A stretch of 64,000 nucleotides of DNA from an uncultured Planctomycetales bacterium (GCA_964520655.1 CAZFNI010000010.1:371-64370); one strand, 5' to 3'; shown: positions 1-53,027, counted from the first letter of the stretch. Notes: generated from the sequence alone by a model not told the origin. Numbers and translations: made by a program.

Positions 1-3000
1 TTTCCGAAAATATAAACCCCATTTCGGATTCTCCTTCTTTTGCCTCGCAGCCAACACCCAAAAGCCGCTTTAGTCTCTGGACCCGTTCTGTTGCGCTGTT
101 TGTCTTAACAGTCTTTATTCCCGACCAGGTCAGCTGGGCGTTTAATTATAATCCGAGTGTCCTCTGGGGCGAAAAAGCCGGGCTGGTGCGTTATGCCCAG
201 CAAGATACGGGGCCTGCTGTTCCTGCGGCTGCCCAGGTCAGCGGTTCTGTCCGTTATTTACTAAATCAATTATCTAATAACAAAGAATCCCTTAATGTTT
301 TAATTAATCTAGATGCCTCAAAGAAAAACGCCCTAAAGTTACAGACCCGCACCGGTTTTGACCAGGCCAAGATCCAAAGCATCATCAAATGGATCAATGC
401 CCCGGGCATACACCCGATCAACTGTGCCTCTTACAGTTTAAAAGACATTGCCGACAGCAAGCATTTAAACCGCACCGTTGAAGAGATCGCGGTCCTCAAT
501 ATCGCGACCGACTTGATGAGCGACATCATTAAAGTCGGTGAGCCGCAATTAAAAACAACATTGTACGCGATCAACAAAGTCGGCCAGGCTTTGGGGATTG
601 ACTATGTCAGCATCAAGACAGCCCGCGAAGACGTCTTAAAACTGCAGACGCCTTTTATTGCCCACTTAAAAGGCGAGCATTTTATCACCATCACCAAGGT
701 GACGGATCAGGATGTGCATGTCAATGATCTGGGACGTCTGCAGGTGGTCAATCGTGCAGACCTGCAGGATAAGCTAGACGGAATTGCCTATGCCCCGGAT
801 CCCTCCAAATCAGAGTCTACTAAGACAATAGAGTTTGAGTATGTGCCCAAAACCCTTCAGGCGTTTGCCTGGGGCGATAAGTGGGTGGATAAAAGCAAGA
901 ATTTGCCGGGGCTTGTCAGTGATAAATCTGTTTACATGAATTTGGCGATCACGGTGGCGGCGACCCTTTTGCTTCCAGGTTCTAATGGACTCACGGGAGC
1001 TGGTGCGGTGGCGATGGCTTTGGCCACTTCCAGCCTTGCTTCCACGGTGGCCACAATATGCGTGCAAAAAGGGGCGTGCAGCGCTTCAGGAGCGTTTATT
1101 TTATCCGCCGCGATCAGCATGGGGGTTGGGAGCATTGATTGGGGCAGTGGTGGTTCTGCCGCAGGATCGGCCGCGTCTTCTTCAACCACTTCGGCATCCA
1201 ATCTATCATTCTTAGACACGCTGAAAGAATTTTTCGACAAGCTTTGGAGCGGGATAAAAGAAGTGTTTGGAGGCGAGCCTCCTGTTACTGGGAGCGCGCC
1301 GCCAGCAACAACACCAGTTGATCCAAGCGTTACATCGCCTCCTCCCACAGGCAATACAGGCTCAACGCCTTCGCCAGATGTTCGGCCAGAGGGAACCCCT
1401 CCAACAGGTGCTGCGCAGACCGCTAAACCGTCAGCCCCAACCAGGGTGGTCAGGCCGTGGTATCAAGCTTTTGCTATTGGGTTTGTTGGCGGCGCTGTTA
1501 CGGGATGGGTGAAGTATAAAGTCCTTTCATATATCAACAATAAAATGTGCGGCGAAAAAGGCTGCACCGGCACACGAGAGATTATCAAGGACGCGTTGGG
1601 CATTATCGCATCTTCCCTGGCTTCTGCTGCTGTTCTTCGCGCAGGTTCATCATTGGTCGATCAGGCCACGAACAATGAATATAAGATCAGCGAATTCTTT
1701 GGATACGCCAAATCTGAAGAGGCCCAAAATGAGGCCATGGGTAAATACACTGTTGAAAAAGATGGGAAAATAACAAGGACGGGCGTCTATGGAGCTATTC
1801 GCGAGATGTCTTTTGAACAGGTGAGGGATGAATTAATTGCAAAATTAAAAAGTGATGATCCTGGTTTTGTTTTGAAAGGTTGGAAAATAGATGATGAGGG
1901 GAATCTTCTTGCTGAAGCTGTTGGTGGAGAAAGCAAGAAGTGGTCCAAGAAAGATTTTGAAGCGTTGGTTGATTCTCGGGAAGAGTATAACCTCAACAAT
2001 TACATAAAGCTGGATGATCAAGGCAATGTTTTTCTGACCCAGGCTAATTTAAGAGGGATCTATGCCCGCGGCTATACCCAGGCTTTTGGTAAGTTACAAG
2101 TTAATGAAAAGGGCAAGATAGAGCTTCTTATTAAGGATTCACGTCCTGAAACCCTTGGGGAAGCATTGGTTGCTGCCCTTAAGGGAGAAGTCCCCAGCAT
2201 GGCTGGACAGTTGGCGTTAATGGCAACGCGGATTTTCTTATTAAAAGCATTTAAAACTAAATCCGACAATACATCGGCTCAAGCATTAAGCCAACTCATG
2301 AGTTTTGCGGCCAGCGCATCAGCAGATCAATGGATGGCCACGGGCAGCACAGGAGATCTATTTAGGGGAGAGGACAAGGCTTTTCTATCCAGTACAGTTG
2401 GCAAGGCTATGCAATTCGCGCTTTATCAAGCTATTTTTGGCGCGCTGTTCAATTCTTTGGAAAGATCTGTTATTGGGAAAGATGACGGGACTCATTCTTA
2501 TGAGTATCGTGATAAGAGAGCGCAATTTAGAACGACGATGTTCATGCTTTCTTCTGTATTGGCTGGATCGTTAAACTATGCATTAAACAGCCCTGACACG
2601 GACACAAAGGTTGGTTTTGGGAAATCTTTGTACAATGAATTGGTTGGCGGCAAAGGCGTTAAAGGGTTAGCGGCACCCGGGCTTGATTCTTTCTTTGGGG
2701 TCTCCTTAAGCAATCAATATCAGCAGGACGGTAACTGGGGATCTGGTAAAAACTTTTTAGCTTATCAAGATACAATGGCCGGTTTATCCGGATTTACCGC
2801 GGAGTGGGCGGTCCAAGCTGAGAACTTGGAGAGACAATATAAAGCTCAAGCGGCTGCGGAAGGAAAAGAGTATAATCGCGACCAATTCCTGTTGGCTTTG
2901 TGGGGCAATAAAATGTTGACCCCCGGCTTGATGAGCGTGGAGTATATATCTGCCACTTTTGCCGGACCTATCTATGACAATTTAAAAGATATCTTCATCA

Positions 3001-12000: not shown

Positions 12001-15000
12001 AGATCACCCAAAACAGCGAATTAGAAGGAAGCATCAAAGAGTTGATGTCAACAGTCAGCGTTGGCGGCAGCGACAATTTACAAGGGCAGCAATTGACTCA
12101 GCAGCAAAAAGAGCAGATCGGTCAAGTTGTTTTAGCTGTGGCGGCCAAACAGGAAAACGCACCTACTAGAAAAGAGATCAAAGACAAGGAAGGCAAAGTT
12201 ATTGCGGTTCTAGAAGTGCACAGGAATGCGGATACCGCAGAGTTAGGTAGGGACGGTGCATTTGCGATCATTGAAGGGCAGGACGGCGTAAAGAAAATTG
12301 TTATTGTAGCCAAGAATAATCAGGCAGCTCTCCATGAGTTTGGTGAATTGCGCTCTAAAAGACAGATCGACCTTATCGAAGGGAGCGTTGAAGGAAAGTC
12401 ATTAAAGGATCTAGGAAAAGATACAATGGCGTTATTAGGATTTGAGGAAGGCGCTCTAACGTCTGATAAATCTCCCCACACTATTGCGGAACAGTTATAT
12501 GGTAAGGGCCAAGAAGCCCCGGCGGGGTTGACGCGCGCACCGCCGACTGAGGTCGCATCCGGACGCATTTTAGATGCCGGAGCTTCTGATAACGCCCTCG
12601 TTGCAGCACCCGAAACTTCCCCGTCAGTTCTAAAATCTACCAAAGATTTAATCGGCACATTCAGGCCTGGTTCATGGTCCAGAATGACGGCAAAGATCGA
12701 TTCATTGGTCCGTCAATTAGGATTAGGGCATTTGGTCGATAGAAATGACGTCGTAAGAACTGAAACAAAGTATTTAGAAACAATGGGGACAAAAGAGATC
12801 AAGGCAGCTCGTTCCGAGCAGATGAAAGAAGCTAATGTTAGGGAAGAATCGTTGATCAAAGCGTTCAATGAAATGTCAATAGAGGGGGGCAATATTGCTC
12901 CAAAAGCAATTATTGAAGCTGCCGTAAGAAATTATACGGGAGAACAGAAAGAGCAATTCCGGTCTCACTTAGAGAAATGGTTTGCGGAGAAACCTTTAGG
13001 GAAGGAAAGCACAGTCACCCGCGGAGAGATGATGGGTGAATTCTTTGGGGCATTTAGATCGTCTATCGGCGGGAAAGATCTTAAGTGGATCGAGGGTCAG
13101 GTCGCGGTGGTCAGCAAGATCATTGATTTTTCATTCGGTAAGAAGCCGGTGGACGGTTCCATGTTAACGGCAATTTTGAACATGGGCGGCGGTAAGACAG
13201 ATATTGCCGTTAATATGATGCCGATCATAGCCAAGTACGCAAAAGAAAAACAGGCTATTTATATTGTCCCCGACAAGCTGGTTCATGACATGGCAGGAAA
13301 AATTTCAGGCGCTCATGTAGTTGAAGGGGCAGTTGGAGAAAGCCTGCAATTTAAAAATGATGTCGTCAATGTCATGGGGCAGACACAAGCTAAAACAATT
13401 TTATTGAATTTGCAGAGCGCAAAACCAGGTGAGATTGTCCGCAATCCATTTAAAGATTCCATTGTGTTTGGTGATGAAGCGCATCTTTTCTATACACTGC
13501 CTTCTTTGATCATCGGCGGAGATTCATCGGCTGGTCAGCACCGGGTAGCAGAAATGAAAGCCACAGAAAAAGGCCGCAGCGAACTTCAATTCCAGGGCGA
13601 GAAGATGCTCGCGTTGCGTGACATCGTGGCAACGATCTACGACGCTGTCGAACAAGTTAAAACCGATGGTTCTTTTAGAGACGCAGTTGTTACGCTGAAG
13701 GTTGGGGAGAAAGAATATAACGGTGCCTATGACCTTGCGCAAAACATAAAAGAGATCGTTAAGCAAAAGCACGGCGAGGCCATAAAGAAATACTTTACCA
13801 AAGAGGCGGGGGTTGAAGAAATGGAGCATTTCTTCCGCGGCGCCGCTTCTGTGTTAAGTGCGGTTGAACATAAAACCATCCGTTTTAATGTTGATAAGCA
13901 AACAGGCTTGAAGATCGAATATGACCCATTCGACTTGCAGACAACAGGTGATCCGCAGTTAAACCGCATATTCACTGACCAGCAAAAGATCAACGCCCAG
14001 GCCAAAGTGATCGTTGCGTTATTTTCTTTAGATAGGGCTCCGTTAAAAGAAATGGCCGGCGCCACATTAAAGATGACCGATGCTTCCGGTAAGAGTGTCT
14101 CAAAAGAAGGGGAGGCAGTGTGGGCTCAGCATACAGGAAAAGAAGATCCTCGCAAGGCCAGCGGTGTTGATGTTCTAAATTCTATACGTGATAATGGCGG
14201 AAGGGTGCTTTTGTTGACTGGTTCGCCGGGTGAATCTTTTGCGGCCATGCGCCAAATGGGGACATCCATCTGGCAGTTGAGAAAAGCGGCTGATTTAGCT
14301 GATATCAACTATGCACCTGTGATTAAAAGCAAGACTGGGTTTATGGATGCCATTGAAGGCTATGCGAAAGAGTACTCATCTGACCAGGGGCAGTATGGGG
14401 ATGCTTTGGTCATCAATACCAAGATGTTGGCGAGTTTAACACATTATTCCCAAGCAGAGCTAAGTGCGTTTGTACAGAAACTTGAGAAAGAAGGAAAGAG
14501 AGTTGATGTTTGGTCTTCTGAACAAGCACAAGGTGGCTTTAATAAACTCAAAGAGGAAGTTAAAGAAGCGGTTGCAAAGGTGACTATTCAGGAAAAAGAC
14601 ATTGTTACAAAAGAGCCTGGTGAGCAAAGAAATGCTGAAATAAAGGCACTTGCGGAGCAGGCAGCAAGAAAGATCGTTAAGGAAGTCCTTAGTGGAAGAG
14701 TTATCATCACATCCATGGTGGAAGGCGTTAACCCAACTGTCGGTCGCAATGTTGATGTTCAGGTCAAAATCGAAGGGGAGGACAAATCTGTTGAACCCGT
14801 AGTTGAACAAGTGAAAGTCGACAATATCTTTTCTGTTGATCACGTGGTTTTGGGGACTCGTTCCGTAGATGCGGGATTACAAAGTATGACCCGTTTCAAT
14901 GCGTATGAAAAAGATACCGACTTTGCCAGCCAGAGTGAACGTACCAAGGCCAGCCGTACACGGCAAGTTTTCCTTACAGATGCTGATCCTGAGTTGGGAG

Positions 15001-36000: not shown

Positions 36001-39000
36001 TGGCCGATCAGATCATCGCTAAGTCCGGTATTAATTCATCCGCCTCCGCGGAAGATAATATGATCTTGGCCGTAGATCGTCAGACATTCAATGCCTACAA
36101 AGCGCTGCATTTGGAATTAATGGCCGCGGCAAGCAATCCGGCAGAGAAAGATGAAGCCATCCAAGCTTCCACGCAATGGTTCATGCGCTGGAAGATCAGC
36201 CCGCTCAATGCCCAGATGATCGTTGCCGGTTTAAATAACGGTAAAGGATTCACAGATCTTAAATCCTTATTGATGATCGATAAGAAGGATTCTTACTATA
36301 AGGCCAAGGATATCCAGCCGGGCCACAGCGTTGAAGGTGTGGAAGAAGTTGAAGAAGTTGAAGAAGTCCCGGCGGCAGTGCAGCCTGCGGATGTTCCTCA
36401 AGGCCCGTCTTACGCCGATCAATTCAATACGGAATACGGCGCGGAAGAGACCCAGACGATCGATGTCGAACCAATGGCGCCGCCAGCACCAGCCGACCGC
36501 AACAATATCAATGATTTCGATAATGAATTGCCGGTCATGCCGCAAGCGCCGCTGCCGCCAGCACCGAATAATATTCTGCCTAAAGTCGGTCCTTTATCCG
36601 ACGCCACAAATGATGTGCAATATGATAATGTCATTGAACTCTCGGCCGTGATGGCTGCGGGCAGGAGAAACACCGCGAAGTTAGAAGGCGAAGGCGGCAT
36701 TGCCACCGATGCCATGCCGGCGACCGGAACAGGCGACGAAGCGATGACATCTGTCGATCCCAACGATCCTTTGAAAGATAAGAAAGCTGTATTGCCCCAG
36801 ACCAATAAAAGCGGCAAAATGCCGCTGGATGAAGGCGGCACCACCGCTCCCATGAGGACCCCGACACTGCCAGGACCCATCGGCAACCCTGTGTCTGTGC
36901 CAGGCACAGCTGCGGCGCAGCCCACAGGTCCAGTGGCTGCCAATAATCCATTAGAACCAGCAGCACCTGAGGCGCCCGCGCCCAACACAACACCGATGGC
37001 TCAAAATAGTCCTTCGGCCCAAAATACTCAGGCACGGGTTGCGGCACCAACACCTTCTCCTGTACCAACTCCGTCCGCGGCAGGCGGAGCCCCGGCTGTA
37101 CCGCGCGCATTGACTGGCCCGCAAACGCCGCTGGGAATAACCTATAATCCGAGTGCTGTTGGATCCCAGGCTGAAGCGCCGCCTCCAGGGGCCTCACAGA
37201 CAACAAGAACAGCTCCTGCTGAACCGGTCAGTGAGCCAATACCATTACAATCACCTATTCCAGTGCCCGCGCAACCTTCTGGGGCTGGGTCAGGCTTAGT
37301 ACCGATCGTTTATGCGATCAGGCAATTGAGATATCAAGTCACAGAACCAGTTCCTACCGGTTCAAGATTAAGGGGGTATAATCCGTTTGCCAGAGTGCTT
37401 TTAAAAACGGCGCCGGATCACGCCCCGGGTCGTAACCCATCTGTCAGCGATTTCTCCGATCGCTCCGACAGAAGAAATGTAGGAAATGGAGAAAATGTAC
37501 AAACGTTTGCAGTACAAGCAGTTGCAGCAAAATCAGTAGTTTCTGTAAAATTAGCAGAAAATGACTTAGCGCAAGCTATGTCATCAAGCAAAAGCAGCAC
37601 AAAAGCAGTACAAGCAGCAAATCGTAGCGCCGAAGTAGCAGCAAGTGTCAACGCAGTACAGGTAGTACGTAGTGTTGCACAAAGCAGTAGTAGTAACAAT
37701 GTCCAAACTGGTAATAAGTCCTCCCTTAGGGGTAGGATGGCAGCGCAAGTAGCAGAAGCAAGAGCTGTAGTGTCAATGGACATTATGGCGGAAACACCTA
37801 GATCTGACAGGACTGTTTATAATAACAGTGCCGCTGGTAATAGTAATAGCAGCAGAGTACATATAGGAAATACTGCATCAAGCCTACGTGCAAGAAGTGT
37901 GCGCATAGACTCTGGGCACGGTATAGATAGTGTAGGTAGACTGTCTAGTGCTAGGGCTATATACACAGATACTGCCATAGGTGTGAGTGCTCGAGATTTG
38001 CCAACCGGGCTTGCCGGGGATGGTCTGCGTATGGGGACTGTTTCTGGAGGTTCAAGAAGTGTTGGCTTCTATTCGTTATTGTCAAAACGAGCACTGACAT
38101 TCAGCCAAACTAATCTCACACAAGCACAATTAAGTATCATCCGTTTCATCCATCAAAAGGGGAGGTACGTATGGTTACCGAACTTAAAATTAACCACATT
38201 ATCCGCGTCCGCGACGACGACTCCAGGATCGCAACCGCACGCGACGCAAACAACAAGATCCACATTTACCGCATCAGCAAACTGGGCATCATCACCAAAC
38301 ATAACGGGCTTAAATCCACATGGGATCCTGTTGAGGCCAGGATCAAGGAAAGTCTCCGCATTCTTATTGACGCCGCAAGCAAATTCGGCCGCAGTTACAA
38401 GATCGACCACGTCTGATCCATCACTCAATTCTAATAATGTTTTTGATCATGCGCGTATTTGGCTAGCCAAACAAAGCCAGGGCCGCTTTGTGTTTGACAG
38501 GGCACAGCGCGCATCCTGGAAAGACGCGCTCCAATCTATCCGCAGAGATCTATGGCAATACATCGCTGTTGCGGTGGGGGGCGTGATCGGTTCTGCGGTG
38601 ACGGTTGTCGCCATAGAAAAGGGATGGATCTCGCCGCGGGCCATCGAGATCATCCGCGTCAATACCTGGATTGTTTTAGGCGTATATGCATTTAAGGTAT
38701 TGATCGACCGCGTTTTTGGTAAGAACGATCGATCAGCTTCTTCCAAAGAAGAAGGCACAAAGAACGACGAAGACAAGAAGATATTGTCCGTCGCCTTGGT
38801 TTTAGGCACCGGGGCGGCCTTGATGTCTGTTTTAGGATTTACACCTGACGCCGAGGCGGCGCAGGCGCATTTAACACAACACAACGGAGGTGCACTATGG
38901 TTAAGATCACCAACATCATCGACATTCCCAGCACTAACAGCCACATTGCCACGGCCAGGGATGAACGCAACAAGGAGCACATCTTCTGCATTACCGATGA

Positions 39001-42000
39001 CGGTCAGGTCTTTAAACGCAAAGGCCGCAGTAAATGGGAAGAACTTACGGGTGAGCGCGCCAAACGCGTTATCTATACCACCTACGAAGAGTTCTGCTCC
39101 AGCGGCGAGAAAAGACACAGCGTCGAGGGCTATGTCGGCGTTCCGCTCTTTATGGCTGCAAAATAATCTGCGTGATGTGGGTGGCATGACCTCGCCCCTG
39201 TTAGGAACAGGGGCCGGCCTGGGAATTGTTCTGTTGGGGCTTGGTTTAAGAGCGCGCCGTCTCAGTGGCGCGCTTGGGGCAGGCGGATATTGGGGCAATG
39301 TCAGTGACGACCTGGAGAAACAGATCAGGTCCGTTCTACCCCGGGCCAGGGACATTAAAGGCCGTCGCCTGCCGGTGGAATTCAACGGCGTGCCTGTTCA
39401 GCACAAGTATTTCGAAAAAGAGTTTTTTGAGAAAAAAGATGTTTCATTTATCTGGGCAGCTAAGAGCCGAGGGAAACTGGTCATTTATTTTTCTTCATAT
39501 GGGCTCTTTACGCAATTGACCCGAGAGTTCCCCCATGAAAAGGAGTTAGAGAAAGCGCTCGAGATGGTTTATTACCACGAGATCAGGGAACAATATTATT
39601 TATCACGCGGGTGGGGGCGCGGCGACAGCCACCGGTTTGCCGTGACTGGCACCCGTATCCAGTATCTGCGTGAGAAGGACATTCTCTCTAGAATAGAATC
39701 CCTGATCGATCCTCTGCCAGCAGCAGCTAAGGACCATGTGCGCGTCCACATTGGCAAGAATGACGCCGAGGAGCTGGATCTAGGCGCTGCGCGTGCCGAT
39801 GCGATCGTACGGCAGCAAAAGGGACGAATCAATATAGCTGTCGGCGGCGGGGAAACAGTCCCGGCACTCCTGGATGCCTGGGTGAGGTTGATCGCAGAGA
39901 ATCTGCCGCTCTACAAAAGCATCATCTCCAGGATGCATGTGTTCATGGTGTATGAATCCAGGAACAGCAACACGCATCAGGTGGTGATTGATAGATTCAT
40001 CACCCCGCTTAAGGCCATGGGCATCAGCGTTGACAGCAAACAGATCCATGCCGTAAATTTACAAAACGCGCATACGCTTGAGGAATACAAAAAGATCGCG
40101 AAGGATTACACCATCGCCATGAGGAATTCGTTAGGTCCCAAGGACCAGTTCGATCTGATCTTAAGCGGGGTTGGCCAGCACGGTGAATTCGCCGGTTTTG
40201 AATCCAATTCACCGGTCATTTATGCCGCCAAGCCGGTGATGATCGCCTTTGAGCGGCGTGACGGTGTTTTGATGACCTCACTGACACCGGATGTGTTCCG
40301 TAAGGCCAGGAACATTATCCTGGTATTGATCGGGCCCCATAAGCGCGGAGCGCTGCTGGATATGATCGCCCCCGAAGGGTCCATCGGTCAGTCCCCGGCC
40401 AGGGTGATCCATGAACAGTACTGGGGCCAGACGGACATTTACACCGATCGTTCTTCCAAGCGCTGGCCGCAAAAAGAATTTTTATTGGATGATGGGACTG
40501 TATTTTTCGCGGATGTGCATGAGGGGCTTAAAGGATCGGATGTGGTCATTTTTATTCCTGGCTTTCATGACCATAATTATGACCAGCAGTTCCGCGGCCT
40601 GCCATATGCCGAGACCATCGTTGTGCGCCGCGACGATCTGCCGGTGAGATTAGGCAAAGATGAGGTGATGGCGTATTACGCACAAAAGATCAAGGCGGTC
40701 ATCAAATATTATCAGGACCAAGGCCGCCGGATCAAAGTGGTGACGCATTCTGACGGGAATGAATTCTTTGGATATTTCCTGGCGCATGCCGCCATGGATA
40801 TTCAGCCGATCGCCGCGCTTGACCGCATCAGCCCATGGAATGCGGCGGATATCGCTTTTGTTATTGAGCGGTTTGCTCAACATAAGCTGGGCCCCGCGGC
40901 TTTTGGGATCGGTTATGTCTCCCCATTGCTGGCATCGATCATGAGCTCGTCCTGGGGATGGTTGCCGATGCTTGGGCCCGCGGCCAATGAAATGCTGCGC
41001 TCATTCATCGCTTCGAACATGGATGCCTTCAGCAGCCTGTTTGACCAGGAGGATGCCACGTTAAGCGGTCAGCTGCGCCGTGATGACCTGGAGTCATCCA
41101 TGGAGATCCCGCTGGAATTGCTGTTCGCGGAATTGTATGCCGTGTCTCATCAAGACAAGGAAGTCACGACCAAGGCACAGGAACGTCTGATCGCCTGGGG
41201 AACGTTCGTGACCACGATCGCGCCTAAAGAGGACAATATTAGCAATGTCAAACGCATCGCGGAGGAACATCAACGATTTATCAGCATGAAAGGGAAAGGG
41301 GAACTTGTTGAATTATCAATCGATCCTAAAGGCGGCAGTTCATTTACGCAGGCCCATTTTATTCACCGTTTTGCGGCGCGGGTGAATGCCTTGATCGCCA
41401 GATTCCCCGGCGATGAAACGATCGTGCCTTCTGCGGAGACAGCGTTTGAAGGGATACAGGCAGCCTTAAGCATATCAAGAGAGAAGGGCCATACATTACT
41501 GCGTATTCATTTTGGTCAGGATGAGATCGACGTGCGGGCGCTTGCGGCTAATGTGGAAGATGCACAGATATATATTGATGATCTCACGACCCACCAAAGG
41601 GTTGTCAATTACACCATTGACCAAACCCGCCGGTATTCAAGCTCGGTGACGCTGCGTTTTAAGGACGGTGAATTACCCGCGGCGTTCTGGATCAAGATCG
41701 GGCAGGGGATCGAGAACACCATCGTGACAAGAGGGGCGGTCGATAAGAAGCTTCGTCCGTATTCATTCTTTGTGACTAAGGATGCCCATGGTCAGCCGTT
41801 CCCGCAAAGTCCAAGAACCGCGGAAGAAGCGTATGGGCTGATGCAGTCATATCGGATATCTGACGATGAAACCCAGGACCATGCCATCAGCGCGTCAGGA
41901 CAGATACTGGCAAGCACGGTCAATAATCATTTTGCTGCCAGGTTTATCCGGCATGCCGATCTGATCCAAAAGATCAACCGCTATTTAGGCCGCGGCGACC

Positions 42001-45000
42001 CGTTGGGAGCGCCGCTGGCGGTGCGCGAAAAAGGTCGGGTAAAATGGTTTGTGGAACCGGACCGTCTGGTGACCATATTATCGCAAGAACTTTCCGAATC
42101 AGAGAGAATAAGCGTTGTTGAAGCGCTTTCCGTTGTCCGCAGCTTTCTCCTTCATGAGTCACGACCGACGGAGAAAGAGGGTATTGCTGCCCAGATCACT
42201 GGGTTTATCCAGGAAGAAGAGATATCCAGAACACGTGACGCTTATGCGACGATCCAGGCGGCCGCGCGTCAGGGCGGTATCAAGACCCTGCAGCAGCTGG
42301 AGAAAAAATATCGCAAAGACCAAACCCTGATGTTCAGATTTGAACACCGTACCGCAGAAAATGTCATTATTTTGTACCGCTGGCCAACGCTCTTTGACGT
42401 ACCGGAAGTCCATAAGGTTCACAATGATATTTGGTTCAAATTCCCCAAAGAGCAGATGTCGCTTTTGCAGGTATACGCTCAGATCCAGAATTATCAGCGC
42501 GGGCATGTTGTGGCGGAAGTTTTTGATTTAAATGTCCCTGGCCGGCAGTACATTTACGCGCCGATCTGGAGCGTGCGGGTCAATGTGTCTCGTGATCTGG
42601 CCCGTCGACTGATGTTTTCTGATGTGGCAGGAACGATGTTTCAAACAGTAGATGCCTTGACCAATGACAAGACGCTTGACGGCGTCGTATCCGTTGACGG
42701 CCAATGGACGTTTAATTATGCCACGGGTCTACCGACAACCAAAGTCGCCAATCAGGACGCGGTTGCCGGGTATCTTGTCAAGGGCAAGCCGCTCAAAGGT
42801 ATTGATGATGGGTTGGTCATGACCCAGGCGTACCAGCAGCACCGCGACAGGATACGGTTCTTAAGAACATACAGCCCGATCACCGCGCTTGGCCTGCATT
42901 GGAAAAAAGGCGCGTTCAAATTTAATTTTGGTGAGATTCCCGATGGAAGATACCCTGGGGCGCATGCGATCATCATGGCCTACCCCTGGCATGATTTTAT
43001 GACCATTGGCAAAGGGCGCTTCTCTGAGAAGCTTTCCAGGGTAGTGATCGTGCCTTCGTATCGTTTTGGCATTGACCGCATCGCTTCACCGGTCGATCCG
43101 GATAAGGAAGAATTGGTCATTCGTGTCGCGGTTCCCGGGTTCAAGCAGGCCTTGCCGCGCAATAACCCGCTGCGCCGTCCTTTTGTGAAGGTTAACAAGG
43201 ATCTGATCCTCAGGAATGGGAATAATCATTACCGTGTTCCTGAGATCTTTAACATGACCGCGGTCGGACATGCCAAAGCATTGCTTAAACGGTATTTAGG
43301 GTTGGATACCATCACCTTGGCATCACTGCCTGAGCACAACGGCATGAAGCTCACCGTCGCTGTATTAGGTGACCATGAGACCCGCTCATTTAAACCGTGG
43401 ATCAATTTTGGGGTGATCAAAGCTCTGCTTAAGAACCGTCAGATCAATACGGTGGTCACCGCAACGACAGGAAATCAGGGTATCGCGCTGGCCTGGGCCG
43501 TGCGCATGCTGGCTAAGACCATGAAGAGGGAAGATCTGAAAGTGATCGTCTATGTCGGTGTTAATACGTCAGAAGCGAAGATCGCGCGCATGCGGGAGTT
43601 CGGCGCCATCGTCATTGGGGATCCTTCCCGCAACCCGGATGTTGTTTTCGAGAATTATGAAGCAGCTTATCAGGCGGCGCTTAAATTCTCCCAGATCCCC
43701 GAGATCAAGGAAAAGACATATTTTGTGGAACATGCCAACCGTGCGGCGATCTTGGGGTATGCCGCATTAGGATCAAGGGTTTTGGAGATCTTGCGTTCAC
43801 AGGATAACGCAGATCATTTGGCTATTATTGTACCCGTCGGGGCCGGAGGTCTGGCCAGCGGCTTTGCAGTTGCGTCACGATTGGAGAAAGATCCGACCAA
43901 GGTGTATATAGTCCAGACAACACGGACAAAGCATGCGTACATCTCGTTGTTGACCGGTAAGAGGGTCGTATTTGCCATGCCTCAAAGTCAAGAGTACGAC
44001 GAGAACGGCATCGACACTAAGAGTCTTGAGCCAATGGCATTAAAGACACTGCGCACTACCGCTGATGGTTTGGCGTTAGTTGACCCGACGCTGATACCTC
44101 AGACGATCGCATATTATCGCGCCCAGGGGATCATTGCTGAGGGGGCCGCGGTATTGCCATATTTGGCGCTGGAGGCCTTGAAGGAAGAATTGGCAACCAA
44201 AGGCATCACCCATGTTCTTTTGGTCGCAACCGGCAGCAATGTCAGCGATGCTGCGCAGAGTTCTCGGGACATCATGAGGCATGAAAGGGCGGCGGCACAT
44301 CGTTTGTACCAGGCCACAAGGAATTTGGAAAAGAAGCGCGCCAAGAACGGGCTGATGCCGATCGTCTCTGTTGGGGCGGCCACGTTTGAGCAGGGCAGGA
44401 GCGTGCATACGGCTTTCAATGATTTTAGCGTGCACGCTGAGGGGAATCTTGTTTTTGATGTGTTGGCCAGTCAGGTTAAGAAGGCACATCCAGCACTTCA
44501 AGAGCCATTAGACCGTCTCTATGCGCTAGTTTCAATGAGGAAGCTGTCCCGTGATCAGACGTCATTCAAACGCCTGGTCAAAATATCCGCGCAATTGGGC
44601 CATCCCATGAAGGGGCTGGATGTGATCGTGACATATGAACCTTGCCCGAGCTGCTTTAATCTCCTTTTCTCCGTCGGTGTTCGCAAGGTATTTTATATCG
44701 ACGCGCATCCTAATGATGAGTTCGCGCAAAAGCGCGGGCATGCCGGCCTTATGAAGGTACAGTTGGAAAGCTTGGCCAGGAAAAGCTTGATGAACCAAAG
44801 GTATAAGCACTTAGTGGCGCAGGACCAGATGGCATTTAGCGATGATCAGCGGGCAGCGCAGGATGTCTTTGCCAATTCATTCAGGCAATGGTTCAAAGAT
44901 CATTTGAATGCCAGCATTGCCGATGTCAGGGGGATGAAAGAACAAATCGGGAATGTTAGCGGCGCAATGTTTTGGAAGATGCCGCGCGGTGACAAGGGGA

Positions 45001-48000
45001 TGGCCTCTCTGAAGCCTGGAGTGCATTCTGGGTCATTGTCCTGGATCGATGGCTTACGATCGAATATCCGCATTCTCCACAATTGGTCCGCCGAGGAACA
45101 GATATTTGCGGCTGATCTATACCGCAGTCAGCCGGAAGTAAAGAAAGCATTTTTGAAAAATGCGCGCATCACCATGGATCTGGAAGCGTATTTAAATTCG
45201 AAAGGAATGCTCCCATTGGGGGTCATTGCCCGCCGTGAGAGCATTAGAACCAAAGTCAAGGATCTGGACCTGGGGTGGCGATGGCTTATCCGAACCGACA
45301 GTCATGAGAATGCAGAAGATGTTATTTTTAGAGTATTGACCCAGGAGCTTCCGGAGGATCAGCAGTTGACGCCGCGTGAAGCGTTGATGTTCATCGCCCA
45401 GGTCAAAGCACATGAAGAAGGAAAAAGCGAAGCGAAAGGCATTGTCCGTCAATACAGAGACATTAAGGCCCGCAATGCTGTTGAACCGAAATTGCGCATT
45501 GATCCGGTGTGGGCCAAGTCGGAGCAGATTAAGGATAGGATCAGGAAGCTTATGAATGTTCTGTGGCATGTGATCATAGGGATGGCATTTATTGCGCCGG
45601 TGATTAATTCAGAACTTTGGATCGTGGCTGCAGTGTATACGGCAGGCATGTGGCTTGCGGCTGCTTTTTGGATATTGATGTTATATTTCTCTGAGGTCCT
45701 GATGGTTATTGGCTGGGGGATCCTGGGGCTGTTTGTCTCTCCGGTGCAAGCCAAGATGGAGTTTGTTAACAGGATATTGACCGCGGCTTTTGCGGCAGCG
45801 ACCGGGATCGCGGGCTATCAGGTGTGGAATATGCCCAACGACGCCAGATCATGGCTTGTTTTGATATTTTTGGGGATCTTTACACATCGGAATCTTTCGG
45901 TGGATATCACCATCAAGCAGGATAATGATGCGCTGGACCTCACCCCCGTCTATGACTTAAGGTCAGGCAAAGAACGCAGCAACATCACCACCGCCTTTGA
46001 TAAGACCGAGGGGATCACGCTCCCCTGGATATACGGATTTAGTCCACAAGGCGGTCATACCGACGAGGACATCAACACGGCCTTACAGTATCTTAAGCGT
46101 ACAGCGCCCCGGAAAGCCTTGTTGCTTAAAACGCTGGTGGACGAAAATCGTTTGACTTTTGGGGCTGACGAAGCGTTCCACTCGGCCTGGGTGACTAAGA
46201 ATGGCCAGCAATACTTGTTGATAAGCGTGATGGAGTCCGAGGACAAGGCCAGGGCTCTGGTGCGTGCGATCGCCGGAAAAGAAGCGGTTTCAGGCTTTGA
46301 CCAGCTTAAGCGTGTAAAACAGACGATCTCCTCATCGGGAGGCGCCTTGGTCAATATCAGCAGCGGCGGGGCCATTTTAGATGTTGTCGCGGCCTATTAT
46401 GAGAACACAGATGCCGGGAAATTCAGCCGTTTCTGGTCGCTGGTTGACCAGAAGCAGATCTATATAAGCCGGCAGGTAGAGCAAACCCGATGGGAGGGCG
46501 ATGAGCTGCTGGTATCATTGTCCAATGATAAAGAACTGTCGCATGAGATCGTGGGGGCCATGGCTGTCCAAGGCGAAACAGCGCAGGGAGAGATCGATCG
46601 ATTGAGGCGGTGGCTTGAGGATCACACATCTGGCAAGGGACTAATGGCAAGTTGGGGCATGTCGGATCAGCAGATCGCTCAATTATCTTCCTGGGGCAAA
46701 GAGCAGCTGTTGAAGATATTCAAGATCGCCTGGCCGGAAGACATGGTGTTAAGTCTGCCAGCTGGGACTACGGGGAATTTGATCTGCTTTGAGCCAGTAC
46801 TCTATAAGATCAACCGTCCAGTGTTTAGCGGTGACCTGCTCTTGGTCCAAATGGCGGTCCTGGCTCAACGCAGGCGGCTGACAGGTATTATTGACGAGAA
46901 GGCGCGTTATGCCGCGGCGCTGTTGACTACGGCAGTTCCTTATTTATTAGACCTGCGTCGCGATGAGGATAGAAAGCAGGCGCTGATCACAGCCCTGGGG
47001 CCTGGGAATATGGGAGAGCAGGATACTCTGGCGACTTTTTACCGTCGGGTGTTGAACGATACGGCTTTGCAGAGGCCGGAAGATCTTCTTGTGCATCTTG
47101 CCGGAATTTTTGACTTGGATGAGGATTCCGTTGGAATGATCGGGACTGTTGACCATGCCCAGGCATCTGTAGTGCCGGGGGATAGTTTTATTGATCCCGC
47201 GCGCAGTGAGCCGCCGCTGGCCGTCTCGCATCAACCTTTGGTCATGAAGATCGCGCAGGAGCATATCCATACACATATGACCCCGTCACATTTGGATATG
47301 ATACGCGACGAGGATGGGCACGTTCAAGAGGATGCCTATACGGGAATGCGCAGGGATATTGAGAGATTCTTAAGGCAGATCGGGGATCTGCGGGCCCTGC
47401 GCATTTTTCAGGGAACGGTCATCCTCCCGTTTACGCCGGGTCTTCAGGACAGCTTGCAGGAAACGTTTTGGGGTGCATACACATTCCAGGGGTTAAACGG
47501 GACCTGGCAGAGAAACGCGGAAACATATCCAGTCATCATTGCCAATGATGCCGAATCGATCGTCCATGAGCTGTATGCTTTAAGCGGCAGGGAACATCAT
47601 CTGGCGCATGCCCATGAACAGGCGGAATATAAGGCTAAAATATTCACACAATGGCTGGAGTCACATAATGATTTTAATATTTTTTATTCCGGGCCCAAGC
47701 CGCATCGCATGGGCGCTTTAGGGTTGCTGAAAAAGATCATCCCGAGAATGGCGTCCGCATTTGCCGCCCAAGGTCAAGAGGCAAGGATTAATGTACTTTC
47801 CTGGGGAGGGGTGAGGCACCTGGAGCTTCCGGTGAGCACTGAGGGGCTGAGGGTCCTGATGTATGTGCTTGAACACAACCGCATGAATCTTAGTCAGTGG
47901 AACAATGTCCGTCTAACCCCGGATAATTTTAAGATCACTGTTGTTGCCGACCGCTTGGACACGCTCGATGCCAAAGCGTTTAAGATACACCTGAACCATT

Positions 48001-49187: not shown

Positions 49188-49189
49188 AT

Positions 49190-49212
49190 AAAGGGGACGG
49201 TCCCCTTTATCC
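49190..49212 (+). terminator. rho-independent terminator-like hairpin after the giant ORF
   Basis: aaagggg acggt cccctttat: a 7-bp GC-rich stem, 5-nt loop and T-rich tail, starting 3 nt after the TAG. Confidence 0.5.
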
Positions 49213-49246
49213 TGAATTTTCTCCTGATTTCATTAGACATTCTCCA

Positions 49247-52196: not shown

Positions 52197-53027
52197 ATGA
52201 ATAATATTTTCACGGTGATCATATCAGTGTTGATAGGGATCGTCGCAGGTATCAGTTTGCTGCTGGGGATCAATTCGACCGTCATGAACGCCAATATGCC
52301 CATGTATGTGCAGATCAAGGAATTGACGACCCATTCTGCCGAGCTTCAGAAAAAGATCGATGTGATCAAGGAGCAGGTCGCGGCGCAGGATAATCTATTA
52401 AAGTCGCTGGTGACTAAGGGCGACAAGCTCATCCAGCTTTCCCAACAGCGGCCGGTTGCGGCTCCAACACCTTCTCCAGTAGCCGCACAGCAGCCTCCGG
52501 AAGAGGACATGGACAAGGTCTATACGATCCCCGATGGCGGCTCTCCCATCATCGGCAAGAAGAACGCGCCTGTTACCATCGTGATGTTCTCTGATCTTCA
52601 ATGCCCGTTCTGCAACCGTTTCTATCCGCCCGTACGGGATGTGCTCAAAGCTTATCCGGATAAAGTGCGTTTGATCATCAAGCACTTCCCGCTGCCGTTC
52701 CATCCGAACGCGCGTCCGGCGGCAAAGTTGACGCTGGCAGCCAATGAACAGGGGAAATTCAAGGAAGTGATGGAATTATTATTAGAGAACGGCGCGGATG
52801 TTTCCGAAGCGAAGGTCAAGGAGTACGCCACGAAGGCCGGATTGAATCACACCCGTTTGGTCAATGACTTAAAGAACAATGACGCCAAGTATGAAGCCCA
52901 GCTGGAGGAAGACGCGAAATTGATCAATTCCAGCGACGTGCGCGGGACCCCGACATTCTTTATCAATGGTAAAAAAGCACAGGTCCGTGACTTAGACGGT
53001 TATAAAGCGATCATCGATAAATTATAG
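52197..53027 (+). CDS. membrane-anchored DsbA-family thiol:disulfide oxidoreductase
   Basis: N-terminal TM anchor. Thioredoxin-fold CPFC active site (SDLQCPFCNRF). DsbA-like C-terminal region GTPTFFINGK. GGAGG RBS at 52186-52190. Confidence 0.75.
   Translation: MNNIFTVIISVLIGIVAGISLLLGINSTVMNANMPMYVQIKELTTHSAELQKKIDVIKEQVAAQDNLLKSLVTKGDKLIQLSQQRPVAAPTPSPVAAQQPPEEDMDKVYTIPDGGSPIIGKKNAPVTIVMFSDLQCPFCNRFYPPVRDVLKAYPDKVRLIIKHFPLPFHPNARPAAKLTLAANEQGKFKEVMELLLENGADVSEAKVKEYATKAGLNHTRLVNDLKNNDAKYEAQLEEDAKLINSSDVRGTPTFFINGKKAQVRDLDGYKAIIDKL

Follow-up and report, generated by a model that had tools for sequence, protein, structure and literature searches.

A 49-kb open reading frame for a C39-headed giant protein, very probably from a member of the Omnitrophota

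Omnitrophota are tiny, probably predatory cells, and the 'archaeovorin' of V. archaeovorus was reportedly described by Kizina in 2022. The giant genes considered by Seymour in 2023 are longer than 20 kb (PMC10066038). Giant Omnitrophota proteins have been reported that carry an N-terminal signal peptide together with a C39 domain, a divergent SecA_DEAD domain, GGDEF domains and transmembrane helices, and a T2SS/Tad-like locus was reported upstream of their genes; a predatory or epibiotic lifestyle and the use of a Tad machine are supported for these organisms, and in V. archaeovorus a 3-fold rise in peptides of its giant protein was seen in attached cells (10.1101/2023.11.21.568195; PMC10066038). 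West-Roberts et al. proposed a signalling link from the GGDEF domains to PilZ proteins encoded downstream (10.1101/2023.11.21.568195). Counting Omnitrophota genomes of their own together with those from NCBI, Nielsen and Lui (2026) listed 5,761 proteins that reach 10,000 aa or more; among the 779 long proteins of their 916-protein catalog that had a Pfam match, a group with C39 architecture was one of the two largest, and 46% of the long Omnitrophota proteins are transmembrane-only, with the bulk predicted to lie on the cytoplasmic face (10.64898/2026.06.07.730766).

The window analysed here is a stretch of 64,000 nt deposited under the name of an uncultured Planctomycetales bacterium (GCA_964520655.1, CAZFNI010000010.1:371-64370). 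An earlier note on this DNA had described a giant open frame that extends past the 5' edge and is not low-complexity filler, and both statements were borne out. Starting at nt 3, frame +3 holds no stop before the TAG at 49185-49187 (49,185 nt in all); it runs past the 5' edge of the window and is incomplete there. Over the same span, 872 stops occur in frame +1 and 1,159 in frame +2, and the next-longest stop-free stretch in the window measures at most 612 codons. Since the random stop rate is about 4-5% per codon, an open run of 16,394 codons cannot be ascribed to chance. No tandem repeats were found in the ORF by Tandem Repeats Finder, self-BLAST of the protein gave only 9 internal matches, all of them weak, and GC1 exceeded GC2, the coding-type pattern, in each 3-kb block. 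The end of the gene looks real, because a terminator-like hairpin lies directly 3' of the stop (the stem itself spans 49187-49211). At the 5' edge, the loss was estimated at no more than about 35-90 codons: window residue 1 aligns with residue 34 of the stop-to-stop frame of the closest ortholog (L003), and it is this alignment, together with the opening of the window just 5' of the conserved signal-anchor, that indicates a short missing N-terminus. The 49-kb ORF is thus confirmed as real, and it is very probably one chromosomal gene, whose product would measure about 16,400 aa (Table 1).

Table 1 Features of the giant gene and its 3' end (aa, residue numbers from the start of the window frame; nt, positions in the window)
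Feature	aa	nt	Strand	Remarks
Giant ORF		3..49187	+	16,394 sense codons and TAG stop; 5' end just off the window
Conserved N-terminal core	1 to ~6,420	3..19262	+	Collinear with other Omnitrophota contigs
Hydrophobic signal-anchor or signal peptide	29-47	87..143	+	SVALFVLTVFIPDQVSWAF; preceded by K/R residues
Peptidase C39 (double-glycine peptidase fold)	~95-265	285..797	+	Pfam, fold, invariant Cys/His
Conserved hydrophobic Cys-pair region	335-552	1005..1658	+	Pairs C353/C359 and C516/C521
P-loop NTPase, two RecA-like lobes, SF2 helicase or SecA-like (putative)	~4,330-4,980	12990..14942	+	
CARDS-toxin D2 beta-trefoil (weak)	~6,175-6,233	18525..18701	+	Below threshold
Lineage-specific central region	~6,420-10,960	19263..32900	+	Ala/Val/Thr/Pro/Gln-rich
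GGDEF domain 1	11,043-11,339	33129..34019	+	Motif AGDEF at aa 11,176-11,180
GGDEF domain 2	11,442-11,732	34326..35198	+	Degenerate motif GGDKF at aa 11,563-11,567
About 3 transmembrane-like segments	12,850-13,084	38550..39254	+	Hydropathy
NagB/Pgl-like domain (glucosamine-6-P isomerase or 6-phosphogluconolactonase)	~13,270-13,471	39810..40415	+	
Possible alpha/beta-hydrolase	~13,500-13,760	40500..41282	+	T-H-S-D-G, nucleophile-elbow-like; below threshold
PLP-dependent fold-type II enzyme	~14,442-14,744	43326..44234	+	Serine racemase/threonine dehydratase-like
Zinc deaminase, CDA/dCMP-deaminase type	~14,789-14,900	44367..44702	+	
3-4 transmembrane-like helices	15,182-15,250	45546..45752	+	Hydropathy
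C-terminal HD, RelA/SpoT-hydrolase-like	~16,170-16,340	48510..49022	+	Below family thresholds
Terminator-like hairpin		49187..49221	+	11-bp stem and T-rich tail, directly after the stop

The protein opens with a hydrophobic anchor, at which the motif F-x-P-x-Q-x-x-W-A is 96-100% conserved in 52 relatives. The domain that follows matched Pfam PF03412 with an E value of 3.4e-8 (33.8 bits, cutoff 22), the match spanning profile positions 41-107 of 133. When its AF2 model (pLDDT 72) was compared with the PDB by Foldseek, the best 23 matches were all C39 domains (PCAT1, ComA, LahT, HlyB CLD; prob 1.0, TMt 0.63-0.70, about 135-145 columns). The catalytic residues, Cys141 (nt 423-425) and His226 (nt 678-680), were invariant (100%) in the 47-52 sequences compared. 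The domain thus has the same fold as the C39 of the peptidase-containing ABC transporters PCAT1, ComA and LahT and the C39-like domain of HlyB, with Cys and His at the expected places. In contrast to these, it has no ABC transporter attached, a domain for which Pfam scans of the giant protein gave no match; it has its own extra helical N-terminal extension of about 50 aa, and it sits after a membrane anchor, probably outside the cytoplasm.

The anchor and C39 head, with its invariant and presumably catalytic dyad, is the hallmark of a family found at 53 genome loci, nearly all of them in MAGs labelled Omnitrophota; no relatives were found in a viral collection. The best identity of the head to any of these 53 relatives was 69%, and 51 of the loci had a frame with no stop before the fetched DNA ended, over up to about 3,700 codons. 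Because the relatives of the head are almost all from Omnitrophota MAGs, the host of the window gene is very probably a member of the Omnitrophota and the gene a member of their C39-headed giant-protein family. No recorded sequence matched the window's GlmS exactly. The likeness to Omnitrophota giant genes, which had been suggested before, very probably amounts to membership of that family. The accompanying description of such proteins as essentially uncharacterised overstates their novelty, as the family was already published, with the C39 group among the two largest (10.64898/2026.06.07.730766). The window gene is very probably a new member of an already described, still unexplained kind of Omnitrophota giant gene.

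In common with the described giant genes, the window gene consists of one ORF exceeding 10,000 codons, with an anchor beside a C39 domain, a putative, divergent helicase/SecA-like P-loop region, GGDEF domains, scattered transmembrane clusters and a mostly unannotatable, sequence-unique body. In the relatives, a Tad/T2SS-like locus also lies directly upstream: of the 46 loci that extend far enough in the 5' direction, 40 have a same-strand TadB/TadC-like (T2SSF) pair just upstream of the head. For the window gene this context is taken from these relatives only, as the window begins inside the giant gene. The gene differs from the described ones in that its product has no Pfam SecA_DEAD match, which was reported for 'most' members, and, unlike in the majority, no PilZ genes lie directly downstream, none being present among the window genes 3' of the ORF. 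About 8-10 transmembrane segments were counted, fewer than the 22 that proteins of 10,000 aa or more were reported to have on average. Two described types were considered and, in their strict sense, rejected on Pfam scans of the whole protein at E<=0.5: the 'Archaeovorin' type (West-Roberts 2023), since HEAT repeats and GT5/GT1 glycosyltransferases gave no match, and the 'Dockerin' type (West-Roberts 2023), since dockerin, TSP3 and CBM repeats gave none. A further comparison is offered by TadG and the other large proteins whose genes close the tad (tight adherence) loci at their 3' end; the giant gene of the relatives also lies directly after tadB-tadC-like genes and its product also starts with a hydrophobic anchor, whereas neither a vWA domain nor an N-terminal domain like that of TadE/TadG was found and the protein is roughly 30 times larger.

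On comparing the protein with other Omnitrophota contigs, it was found that its first 6,400 residues or so are collinear with L003, L056/P0004 and L057, at 35-45% identity over about 3,500-6,400 codons. L003 is 65% identical to the window protein over aa 1-375 and, further on, 40% identical over aa 486-3536; for P0004/L056 the identity is 35% over aa 254-5241, going on to aa 6407, and for L057 it is 40% over aa 4566-6421. By these alignments the giant frame is conserved in evolution, its core of about 6,400 aa aligning collinearly with at least three other contigs. The core contains a Walker A motif (GGGKT, aa 4395-4399) and a DEAH motif (aa 4491-4494), accompanied by LTGSPGES and TSMVEGVN, which we take to resemble SecA motifs. 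The AF2 model of this region is of low confidence (pLDDT 55), and with it Foldseek matched XPB, INO80, UvrB and SecA (3dl8_A, E 1e-3), the SF2 and SecA scores being similarly weak. Pfam SecA_DEAD (PF07517) gave no match even at E<=5 in the window protein or in its relatives P0004-P0008, and a profile search against PDB sequences gave none. Only 5 relatives of the region were found among 1.84 billion representatives. P0006 is a stand-alone homolog of the ATPase region that starts with a signal peptide. The P-loop/DEAH call that had been made for this part is therefore kept at the level of motifs and fold, as a putative ATPase of SF2/SecA-like type, while a Pfam match to SecA_DEAD is lacking. 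Near the end of the core, a CARDS-toxin D2 match was seen with Pfam (E 1e-4, 22.6 bits, cutoff 26) and with PDB entry 4tlv (E 0.028).

For the central part, of about 4,500 aa, no matching family turned up; in the orthologs this part is shorter, by about 2,450 aa in L056 and about 3,800 aa in L057. In the C-terminal part, of about 5,400 aa, a string of enzyme modules is found with transmembrane clusters between them. The two GGDEF stretches (PF00990, E 7e-35, 120.7 bits) are paralogous, with 30% identity and an insert of about 60 aa in each; measured against the active-site motif GG[DE]EF, the first is a variant and the second is without the acidic residue. A Ser/Pro/Ala/Thr-rich stretch (aa ~12,000-13,000) precedes the first transmembrane cluster. 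The NagB/Pgl-like domain matched PF01182 (E 2.1e-14, 54.4 bits) and TIGR01198 pgl (E 1.4e-8), and the adjoining hydrolase candidate matched Pfam LCAT (E 0.016, 14.9 bits, cutoff 21) and had no PDB match by sequence. The PLP domain gave PF00291 at E 9e-29 (101 bits, cutoff 35), serine racemases in the PDB at E 4e-6 and the IlvA-type NCBIfam at E 5e-20; it has S-F-K at aa 14,462-14,464, with Lys14,464 as the Schiff-base lysine, and the Gly loop VGAGGLASG. In the deaminase, the zinc motifs are intact (HAE at aa 14,811, PCPSC at aa 14,880-14,884), and PF00383 scored 27.1 bits (cutoff 25) when the domain was scanned alone and 20-23 bits inside longer chunks; its PDB match, 4p9c, was weak. The HD region contains the motifs AH...HPL...ALLHD...DRIDN, that is, H...HD...D in SpoT-like contexts, so that a SpoT-like resemblance is plausible. 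Its scores were sub-threshold: Pfam HD at E 0.0038 (17.9 bits, cutoff 22), TIGR00691 spoT_relA at E 0.059 and, over matching positions, the SpoT/RelA structure 6s2t at E 0.63.

In HMM searches, most of the domain calls made in the earlier note proved significant: those of a C39-like peptidase, two GGDEF domains, a Pgl/NagB-like domain, a PLP fold II enzyme and a CDA deaminase. The several transmembrane blocks it had named are present by hydropathy, while its SpoT-type HD, alpha/beta hydrolase and TPR repeats returned sub-threshold hints. Pfam gave no significant match to adhesin, lectin or glycoside hydrolase families (glycoside hydrolases being scanned at E<=0.5), and beta-trefoil and transglycosylase matches were sub-threshold. 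No description of the C-terminal set of PLP enzyme, zinc deaminase, NagB-like domain and SpoT-like HD was found in the literature on Omnitrophota giant proteins, and the word 'deaminase' does not occur in 10.1101/2023.11.21.568195 or 10.64898/2026.06.07.730766.

The amino acid composition bears on where the protein resides. Its Cys content is 0.061%, as against 1.57% in the neighbouring genes, a 26-fold depletion (P about 1e-95), and the median in 40 relatives is 0.125%. The last 5,400 aa contain only 3 Cys, of which 2 are the zinc ligands of the deaminase. Three close pairs occur near the N-terminus, C353/C359, C516/C521 and a third at aa 1134/1139. Among the relatives, both members of C353/C359 are present in 24, neither in 21 and a single one in 2; for C516/C521 the corresponding numbers are 7, 40 and 0. 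The pairs thus appear to be gained and lost together, as is expected of disulfide partners. A hydropathy scan, from which alone the transmembrane calls were made and the topology was read, marked the N-terminal anchor, aa 335-376, aa 534-552, the cluster at aa 12,850-13,084 and the block at aa 15,182-15,250. The basic residues before the anchor, the Cys depletion, the paired Cys, a nearby DsbA-like gene and the signal peptide of P0006 together point to envelope targeting.

The reading that we favour, though with only modest assurance, is that of an envelope-targeted giant C39-family protein which works with the Tad machine in attachment and in interaction with a host or prey. The N-terminal anchor would target the protein to the cell envelope, the first 1,100 aa or more would lie outside the cytoplasm, and the later transmembrane clusters would hold the protein in the inner membrane. 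Together with the Tad/type-II-secretion-like machine, it could form a device for attachment and for host or prey interaction, in which the C39 domain may cleave behind Gly-Gly-type sites, either in the polyprotein that contains it or in its partners. A surface or host-interaction role, which the earlier note had suggested, would fit both the published hypotheses and the Cys data. The GGDEF, P-loop ATPase, PLP, deaminase and HD modules use cytoplasmic substrates, and this fits poorly with a mostly extracytoplasmic chain. The lack of a significant adhesin, lectin or glycoside hydrolase match and of PilZ genes on the 3' side also speaks against the favoured reading.

Alternatively, the protein might be a mostly cytoplasmic multi-enzyme and signalling scaffold tethered to the inner membrane, with only the head and short loops outside; its modules would then act in the cytoplasm of the producer, where they might, e.g., link metabolism and signalling of the c-di-GMP or (p)ppGpp type with the adjacent Tad machine. 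We regard this as possible, yet rather unlikely. Every recognisable C-terminal module is a cytoplasmic-type enzyme needing nucleotides, PLP or zinc, the P-loop region requires ATP, and at the hydrophobic stretches of aa 335-376 and aa 534-552 the chain could cross back into the cytoplasm. The 46% of transmembrane-only long Omnitrophota proteins, mostly on the cytoplasmic face by prediction (10.64898/2026.06.07.730766), would agree with such a topology, as would the GGDEF-to-PilZ signalling of West-Roberts et al. (10.1101/2023.11.21.568195); however, GGDKF in GGDEF domain 2 is without the catalytic Glu and a PilZ gene is missing downstream in the window. The Cys depletion, moreover, runs along the whole chain, enzyme modules included, which is odd for cytoplasmic enzymes when the neighbours have 1.6% Cys. 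The co-varying pairs at aa 353-521 suggest an oxidising compartment exactly where the scaffold needs membrane helices, and the signal peptide on the homolog of the ATPase region also argues against it.

It is less easily believed, and in our judgement improbable, that the protein is a self-processing multi-effector polyprotein, exported largely unfolded, with the Tad/T2SS-like machine assisting, into a host or prey in the manner of a MARTX toxin. Its own cysteine peptidase would cut the chain, and the cyclase-like, hydrolase, deaminase, PLP and HD modules would act in the target, on its pools of nucleotides and metabolites. In its broadest form this reading would cover the C39-headed giant proteins of Omnitrophota as a whole, taken as cysteine-free polyproteins, and the strategy would be MARTX-like but of independent origin, at three or more times the size. 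Cys avoidance is known from proteins secreted unfolded, and the avoidance here is extreme. The catalytic residues of the peptidase head appear intact, as do the zinc site of the deaminase and the AGDEF motif, the unrelated enzyme domains form a modular string whose substrates are intracellular only, and the ATPase-region homolog bears a signal peptide. The predatory or epibiotic lifestyle and Tad use published for Omnitrophota would also suit an exported protein (10.1101/2023.11.21.568195; PMC10066038). On the other hand, several transmembrane clusters suggest retention in the membrane of the producer, no known secretion system exports a substrate of 16,000 aa, no immunity-like gene was recognised downstream, the Bd3614/MafB19 deaminase matches reached only E of about 0.2, and RTX repeats, a C80-type CPD and known toxin families gave no match in the scans. 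In a weaker form of this reading, the family-wide Cys avoidance and the co-varying pairs would settle the disputed topology, with most of the chain extracytoplasmic.

The likeness to the MARTX toxins consists in a very large, Cys-poor chain with a cysteine peptidase and unrelated modules, one of nucleotide-cyclase type and possibly an alpha/beta hydrolase. The window protein, unlike them, has no RTX or glycine-rich repeats, no C80 CPD and no type I secretion genes; its peptidase is N-terminal rather than internal, it is three times the size of a MARTX toxin and it contains internal transmembrane clusters, so that the likeness is one of design and not of homology. Membership of the MARTX toxins was rejected, as RTX-type repeats and an internal C80 domain appeared in none of the scans.

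The codon composition changes along the gene. GC3 is 0.53 in the first 500 codons, 0.36-0.48 over aa ~500-6,400 of the core and 0.58-0.65 near the 3' end, where it resembles that of housekeeping genes (0.64), and the RSCU correlation with housekeeping genes is 0.30 in the first 20 kb and 0.77 in the remainder. Since the change falls where collinearity with L056 and L057 stops, one could suppose that two giant genes, one from a lower-GC and one from a higher-GC population, were joined in frame during assembly, the true genes being shorter or otherwise different. Such an artefact is very improbable. The change is a gradient of more than 10 kb and not a step, and homology to the same orthologs, L056 and L057, resumes at aa 10,378-12,805, indicating that both ends belong to one orthologous gene. 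Furthermore, assemblers join at shared sequence and the giant ORF contains no repeats, errors tend to interrupt long frames and seldom produce them, and equally long open frames occur in three independent contigs. The GC3 gradient tracking the conserved core is a new lead, as are the 26-fold Cys depletion and the co-gained and co-lost Cys pairs.

That the ORF is real and still yields no single chain of 16,394 aa, owing to internal starts or to frameshift switching at homopolymers, is hardly credible, for while the head (1,251 aa) and body of L001 are separate frames meeting at a G9 run, the L056 ortholog shifts frame twice, once at an A7 run, with homology running across the breaks, and the giant ORF itself has a G8 run at nt 9557-9564, the frame is unbroken in the window and in 51 of the 53 genome loci, such breaks are also typical of sequencing error, and homopolymer runs are under-represented in the giant ORF (2 observed, 10.4 expected).

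On the 3' side of the ORF, the window continues with genes for a DNA alkylation repair protein, a 138-aa protein of unknown type, TrmB-like, DacA-like and DsbA-like proteins, GlmS and others; the flanks of the giant ORF are ordinary chromosomal genes.

The giant open reading frame (ORF) is genuine, and the observation of an earlier note on this DNA, that one frame stays open over the first 49,187 nt and past the 5' edge, was confirmed. Frame +3 is stop-free from nt 3 to a TAG codon at 49185-49187 and comprises 16,394 sense codons; within that interval, frames +1 and +2 are interrupted by 872 and 1,159 stops, and the next-longest stop-free stretches within the window are all of 612 codons or fewer. 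GC1 exceeds GC2 in all 3-kb blocks of the ORF, which is a coding-type pattern. As the note had also stated, the ORF is not low-complexity filler: no tandem repeats were detected in it by Tandem Repeats Finder, and in a self-BLAST of the protein the internal matches were weak and numbered only nine, with the top one pairing its first and second GGDEF domains (GGDEF-1 and GGDEF-2). Repeat-driven expansion of the gene was ruled out by this lack of tandem repeats and scarcity of internal repeats. The 3' end is marked by a terminator-like hairpin (49187-49211; 49187-49221 in the Table), which begins at the last base of the stop codon and has a stem of 11 bp. At the other end, the window translation includes a hydrophobic signal-anchor (...KSRFSLWTRSVALFVLTVFIPDQVSWAFNYNP), and residue 34 of the stop-to-stop frame in the closest ortholog, the relative locus L003, aligns to window residue 1; hence, a few tens of N-terminal codons are absent.

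A search with aa 1-1,200 gave three proteins, one each from a JGI metagenome, an Elusimicrobia-labelled and an Omnitrophota-labelled source, and in the contigs of two of them the giant gene is preceded by two T2SSF (TadB/TadC-like) genes and small pilin-like genes. When an alignment of the head, i.e. the signal-anchor and C39 peptidase domain, was scanned against 185,579 species genomes, 53 loci were obtained (best identity 69%), almost all from Omnitrophota-labelled MAGs and some labelled 'uncultured Planctomycetales'. In 51 of these loci, no stop interrupts the head-initiated frame before the fetched DNA ends, over up to ~3,700 codons; the two exceptions contain masked Ns. Upstream DNA exceeds 2.5 kb at 46 loci, and 40 of these have a same-strand T2SSF pair just upstream. 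The head defines a family of giant genes. In L003, the usual tight Tad linkage is broken, and the TadB/TadC-like pair is separated from the giant gene by an AAA_14/DUF4143 ATPase gene and a 1,352-aa ORF of unknown product. The peptidase dyad, Cys141 and His226, is invariant across 47-52 sequences. The AlphaFold model of the head (pLDDT 72) had C39 peptidase domains as all of its top 23 Foldseek matches, among them PCAT1, ComA, LahT and the HlyB C39-like domain (probability 1.0, TMt 0.63-0.70).

On comparing the relatives along their length, it was found that most share only the first ~375 residues with the window protein, and longer collinear homology was seen in L003, in L056/P0004 (a relative locus and protein on the same contig) and in L057, which came from the metagenome scan (Table). 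Homology ends past aa ~6,420 and returns patchily at aa 10,378-12,805. Between aa ~6,420 and 10,378, relatives are ~2,450-3,800 aa shorter, the central region of L057 being ~3,800 aa shorter. The order of modules is also reversed: in L057 (9,989-12,424), the counterpart of window aa 11,749-12,284 precedes a single GGDEF domain, whereas in the window (aa 10,967-12,284) two GGDEF domains precede that segment. The giant protein therefore divides into four parts: a head found throughout the family, a core of ~6,400 aa shared by the subfamily, a lineage-specific centre and C-terminal modules that are partly shared and shuffled. That the frame stays open across thousands of codons in independently assembled contigs of 35-45% identity strongly indicates its translation. 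At this level of amino-acid identity, synonymous sites are saturated, which bears on any dN/dS estimate.

Features of the giant protein, its relatives and its flanks (aa, residues of the window translation; L-handles, relative loci)
Feature	Position	Strand	Details
Ten cysteines of giant protein	353/359, 516/521, 1134/1139 (close pairs)		1 C39 nucleophile; 2 deaminase zinc ligands; 6 in the close pairs
Peptidase_C39	aa 181-245		Pfam, E 3e-8
GGDEF-1, GGDEF-2	aa ~11,043-11,339; 11,442-11,732		E 7e-35
Glucosamine_iso (NagB/Pgl)	aa ~13,270-13,471		E 2e-14
PALP, PLP fold-II family	aa ~14,442-14,744		E 9e-29
dCMP_cyt_deam_1	aa ~14,789-14,900		27.1 bits vs cutoff 25, domain scanned alone
L003	aa 1-375; aa 486-3,536 (limit of fetched DNA)		1.34-Mb contig; 65% and 40% identity, respectively
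L056/P0004	aa 254-5,241, onward to aa 6,407		JGI contig; 35% identity (aa 254-5,241)
L057 (JACCDT011306633.1)	aa 4,566-6,421		1.02-Mb contig; 6,936 codons open end to end; 40% identity
AAA_14/DUF4143 ATPase gene in L003	8,251-9,420	minus	opposite giant gene
Terminator-like hairpin	49187-49221		11-bp stem, GATAAAGGGGA-CGG-TCCCCTTTATC
Downstream genes	within the 15 kb that follow the giant ORF		AlkD-like DNA repair, TrmB-like, DacA-like, DsbA-like, GlmS, PyrR/B/C/K, Fpg, tRNA-Arg(CCG)
Two paralogous adjacent genes	55868-57247; 57266-58648	minus	~460 aa each; C-terminal Peptidase_S74 intramolecular-chaperone domain

The domain content was examined by Pfam and NCBIfam scans of the whole giant protein, in pieces of 4,200 aa, 1,000 aa and domain size. 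The earlier reading of a mosaic megaprotein proved largely right: besides the giant ORF itself, its C39-like peptidase (by profile, fold and invariant dyad), two GGDEF domains, Pgl/NagB-like domain, PLP fold II and CDA deaminase were all recovered (Table), while its SpoT-type HD, alpha/beta hydrolase and TPR repeats fell below threshold. The PLP domain retains the S-F-K lysine and the glycine loop, and in the PDB it comes closest to serine racemases and threonine dehydratases. The HAE and PCPSC motifs of the deaminase are intact. GGDEF-1 carries the motif AGDEF and GGDEF-2 carries GGDKF; from its motif, the latter is probably inactive. The HD region shows H...HD...D motifs in SpoT-like contexts and scored 17.9 bits against a Pfam cutoff of 22, with sub-threshold SpoT/RelA matches (E 0.06 in NCBIfam, 0.63 in PDB). 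Likewise sub-threshold were an LCAT-type alpha/beta-hydrolase signal (E 0.016), TPR (E about 0.01), a CARDS-toxin beta-trefoil (E 1e-4) and a transglycosylase. Across the ~10,000 residues of aa 300-11,000, no Pfam family reached its curated cutoff and no PDB sequence matched at E < 0.01; the TPR and beta-trefoil signals were the sole hints in this stretch.

The P-loop/DEAH region of the note was upheld in its motifs and fold and not by any HMM. A Walker A motif (GGGKT, aa 4395-4399) and a DEAH box (aa 4491-4494) are spaced by 95 residues, and the motifs LTGSPGES and TSMVEGVN recall MTGTA and TNMAGRGTDI of SecA. No SecA_DEAD or helicase HMM matched the giant protein or the five relatives of this region; a profile of the region found no PDB sequence, and jackhmmer against all fetched loci no match. 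Word-indexed homolog searches with aa 4,300-4,950 and aa 1,850-2,500 returned no relatives, and exhaustive HMMER with aa 4,250-5,000 yielded only five among 1.84 billion representatives. The AlphaFold (AF2) model built from this five-sequence alignment was poor (pLDDT 55), and Foldseek matched it about equally to the two-RecA-lobe ATPases XPB, INO80, UvrB and SecA (3dl8_A, E 1e-3). Given the negative Pfam and PDB profile searches and the similar matches of this poor model to all four ATPases, aa ~4,330-4,980 is described as a putative SF2/SecA-like NTPase region rather than as SecA, to which it may still belong. A stand-alone homolog of this region, the 871-aa relative protein P0006, starts with a classical Sec signal peptide (MKLKNIFLLGIAYFTLNSARAQ), which implies that the ATPase-like module would be exported in at least one organism.

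Cysteine exclusion is typical of exported proteins. Only 10 of the 16,394 residues of the giant protein are cysteine (0.061%), against 1.57% in the neighbouring genes, a 26-fold depletion (binomial P about 1e-95); the median across 40 related giant ORFs is 0.125%. Across relatives, C353/C359 are both present in 24 sequences, both absent in 21 and single in 2, and C516/C521 are both present in 7, both absent in 40 and never single, all of these counts being inflated by sequence relatedness. Such joint gain and loss is as would be expected of disulfide partners. The first hydrophobic segment is preceded by basic residues, and 3 kb downstream of the giant gene lies a gene for a DsbA/Thioredoxin_4 protein (52197-53027) with an N-terminal extension of ~110 aa, which is relevant to the putative disulfide pairs of the head. 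The basic residues before the anchor, the cysteine depletion, the paired cysteines and the nearby DsbA-like gene together suggest that the head, along with no fewer than the first ~1,100 residues, lies outside the cytoplasm and bears small disulfide loops. The whole chain would be under export-type cysteine exclusion, and later transmembrane clusters at aa 12,850-13,084 and 15,182-15,250 may tether it to the membrane. That the C39 dyad is invariant suggests a working protease, which would cut either the polyprotein itself or partner proteins, and the constant position after tadB/tadC-like genes suggests that the giant protein works with a Tad-like machine.

An extracytoplasmic placement meets one main difficulty: the substrates required by the ATPase, GGDEF, PLP, deaminase and HD modules are cytoplasmic. 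Two alternatives follow from this requirement. In the first, most of the chain is cytoplasmic and the topology proposed here is wrong; the substrates would then be at hand, and the depletion and pairing of cysteines are the observations that it has to face. In the second, by analogy with MARTX toxins, the modules would be delivered to another cell and act inside it, where their substrates exist in the cytoplasm of the target.

Codon usage changes along the gene. GC3 is 0.36-0.48 at aa ~500-6,400, 0.50-0.56 at aa 6,500-10,000 and 0.58-0.65 beyond, the housekeeping genes having 0.64, and the RSCU correlation with these genes rises from 0.30 in the first 20 kb to 0.77 in the remainder, the shift falling around nt 18,000-22,000. 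The low-GC3 stretch is the conserved 6,400-aa core, and the known orthologs of the core are found in low-GC genomes (GC 0.39-0.42, GC3 0.23-0.36). The core could have been acquired or exchanged from a lower-GC relative by recombination or horizontal exchange, or translational selection could vary along the gene. A chimeric assembly is the least likely source, as GC3 changes gradually and not in one step, matches to the same orthologs recur further along the gene, no repeats offer the assembler a mis-join site and independent contigs carry equally long open frames. The window ORF has two homopolymer runs of at least seven (A7 at 3221 and G8 at 9557) against 10.4 expected. In two relatives, the giant gene falls into different frames, with homology carrying on past the breaks; these lie in L001 at a G9 run (13,740-13,760) and in L056 at an A7 run (~18,750-18,760) and at ~3,560-3,700; the splits at homopolymers may be either sequencing error or slipped-strand phase variation.

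Giant ORFs of more than 20 kb, with TadBC genes, were reported in most Omnitrophota classes (Seymour 2023, PMC10066038). Giant proteins were described whose C39 domains lie close to N-terminal signal peptides and which have GGDEF and divergent SecA_DEAD domains, many transmembrane helices, a T2SS/Tad-like locus with class-III-signal-peptide genes upstream and PilZ genes downstream (West-Roberts et al. 2023, 10.1101/2023.11.21.568195). Combining their own and NCBI genomes, Nielsen and Lui (2026, 10.64898/2026.06.07.730766) counted 5,761 proteins of at least 10,000 aa, the longest of 147,155 aa; these were mostly sequence-unique, a 'multi-enzyme' class was named, and the PF03412 (C39) architecture group was one of the two largest. 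The window gene fits this documented kind, and the phenomenon is already known. Unlike the published Omnitrophota giants, it lacks HEAT, glycosyltransferase, glycoside hydrolase and dockerin content, has no PilZ neighbours and encodes fewer transmembrane segments; no description was found of its set of PLP enzyme, deaminase, NagB-like and SpoT-like HD modules. The word 'cysteine' is absent from West-Roberts 2023, Nielsen and Lui 2026 and PMC11573180, and these three giant-protein papers do not mention cysteine depletion, cysteine co-variation, an invariant C39 dyad or a codon-usage gradient.

Omnitrophota giant genes have been a recognised puzzle since 2022-2023: how chains of 10,000-147,000 residues are handled from ribosome to membrane, whether they are cut and what role they have. 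The window locus is one more sequence-unique member and alone leaves the overall picture unchanged. It is useful in that the gene is near-complete, wanting a few dozen N-terminal residues and having its 3' end set by a stop and a terminator-like hairpin; in that at least three collinear orthologs separate the conserved core from the variable modules; and in that cysteine depletion, cysteine pairs, the C39 dyad and the codon-usage gradient bear on topology and processing. All of these signals can be checked, with no further experiment, on the giant proteins already published in their thousands, and those from cysteine and codon usage are modest new leads on where giant proteins go.

The 15 kb 3' of the giant gene holds ordinary chromosomal genes (Table), and the locus is part of a bacterial chromosome rather than of a phage or plasmid. 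The viral collection yielded no relative of the head domain, a result that, together with the housekeeping flanks, argues against a phage or mobile-element origin. Within this neighbourhood, the two adjacent paralogs end in a Peptidase_S74 domain, of a kind known from the tail spikes and fibres of phages; one of them, when translated, showed a signal peptide and a Thr/Gly/Asn-rich repetitive body, and by sequence the pair looks like secreted, trimeric surface fibres. Just upstream of glmS, a 96-aa ORF (53057-53347), distant from any ribosomal operon, gave a partial Ribosomal_L27 match (E 1e-8, profile positions 17-75 of 79).
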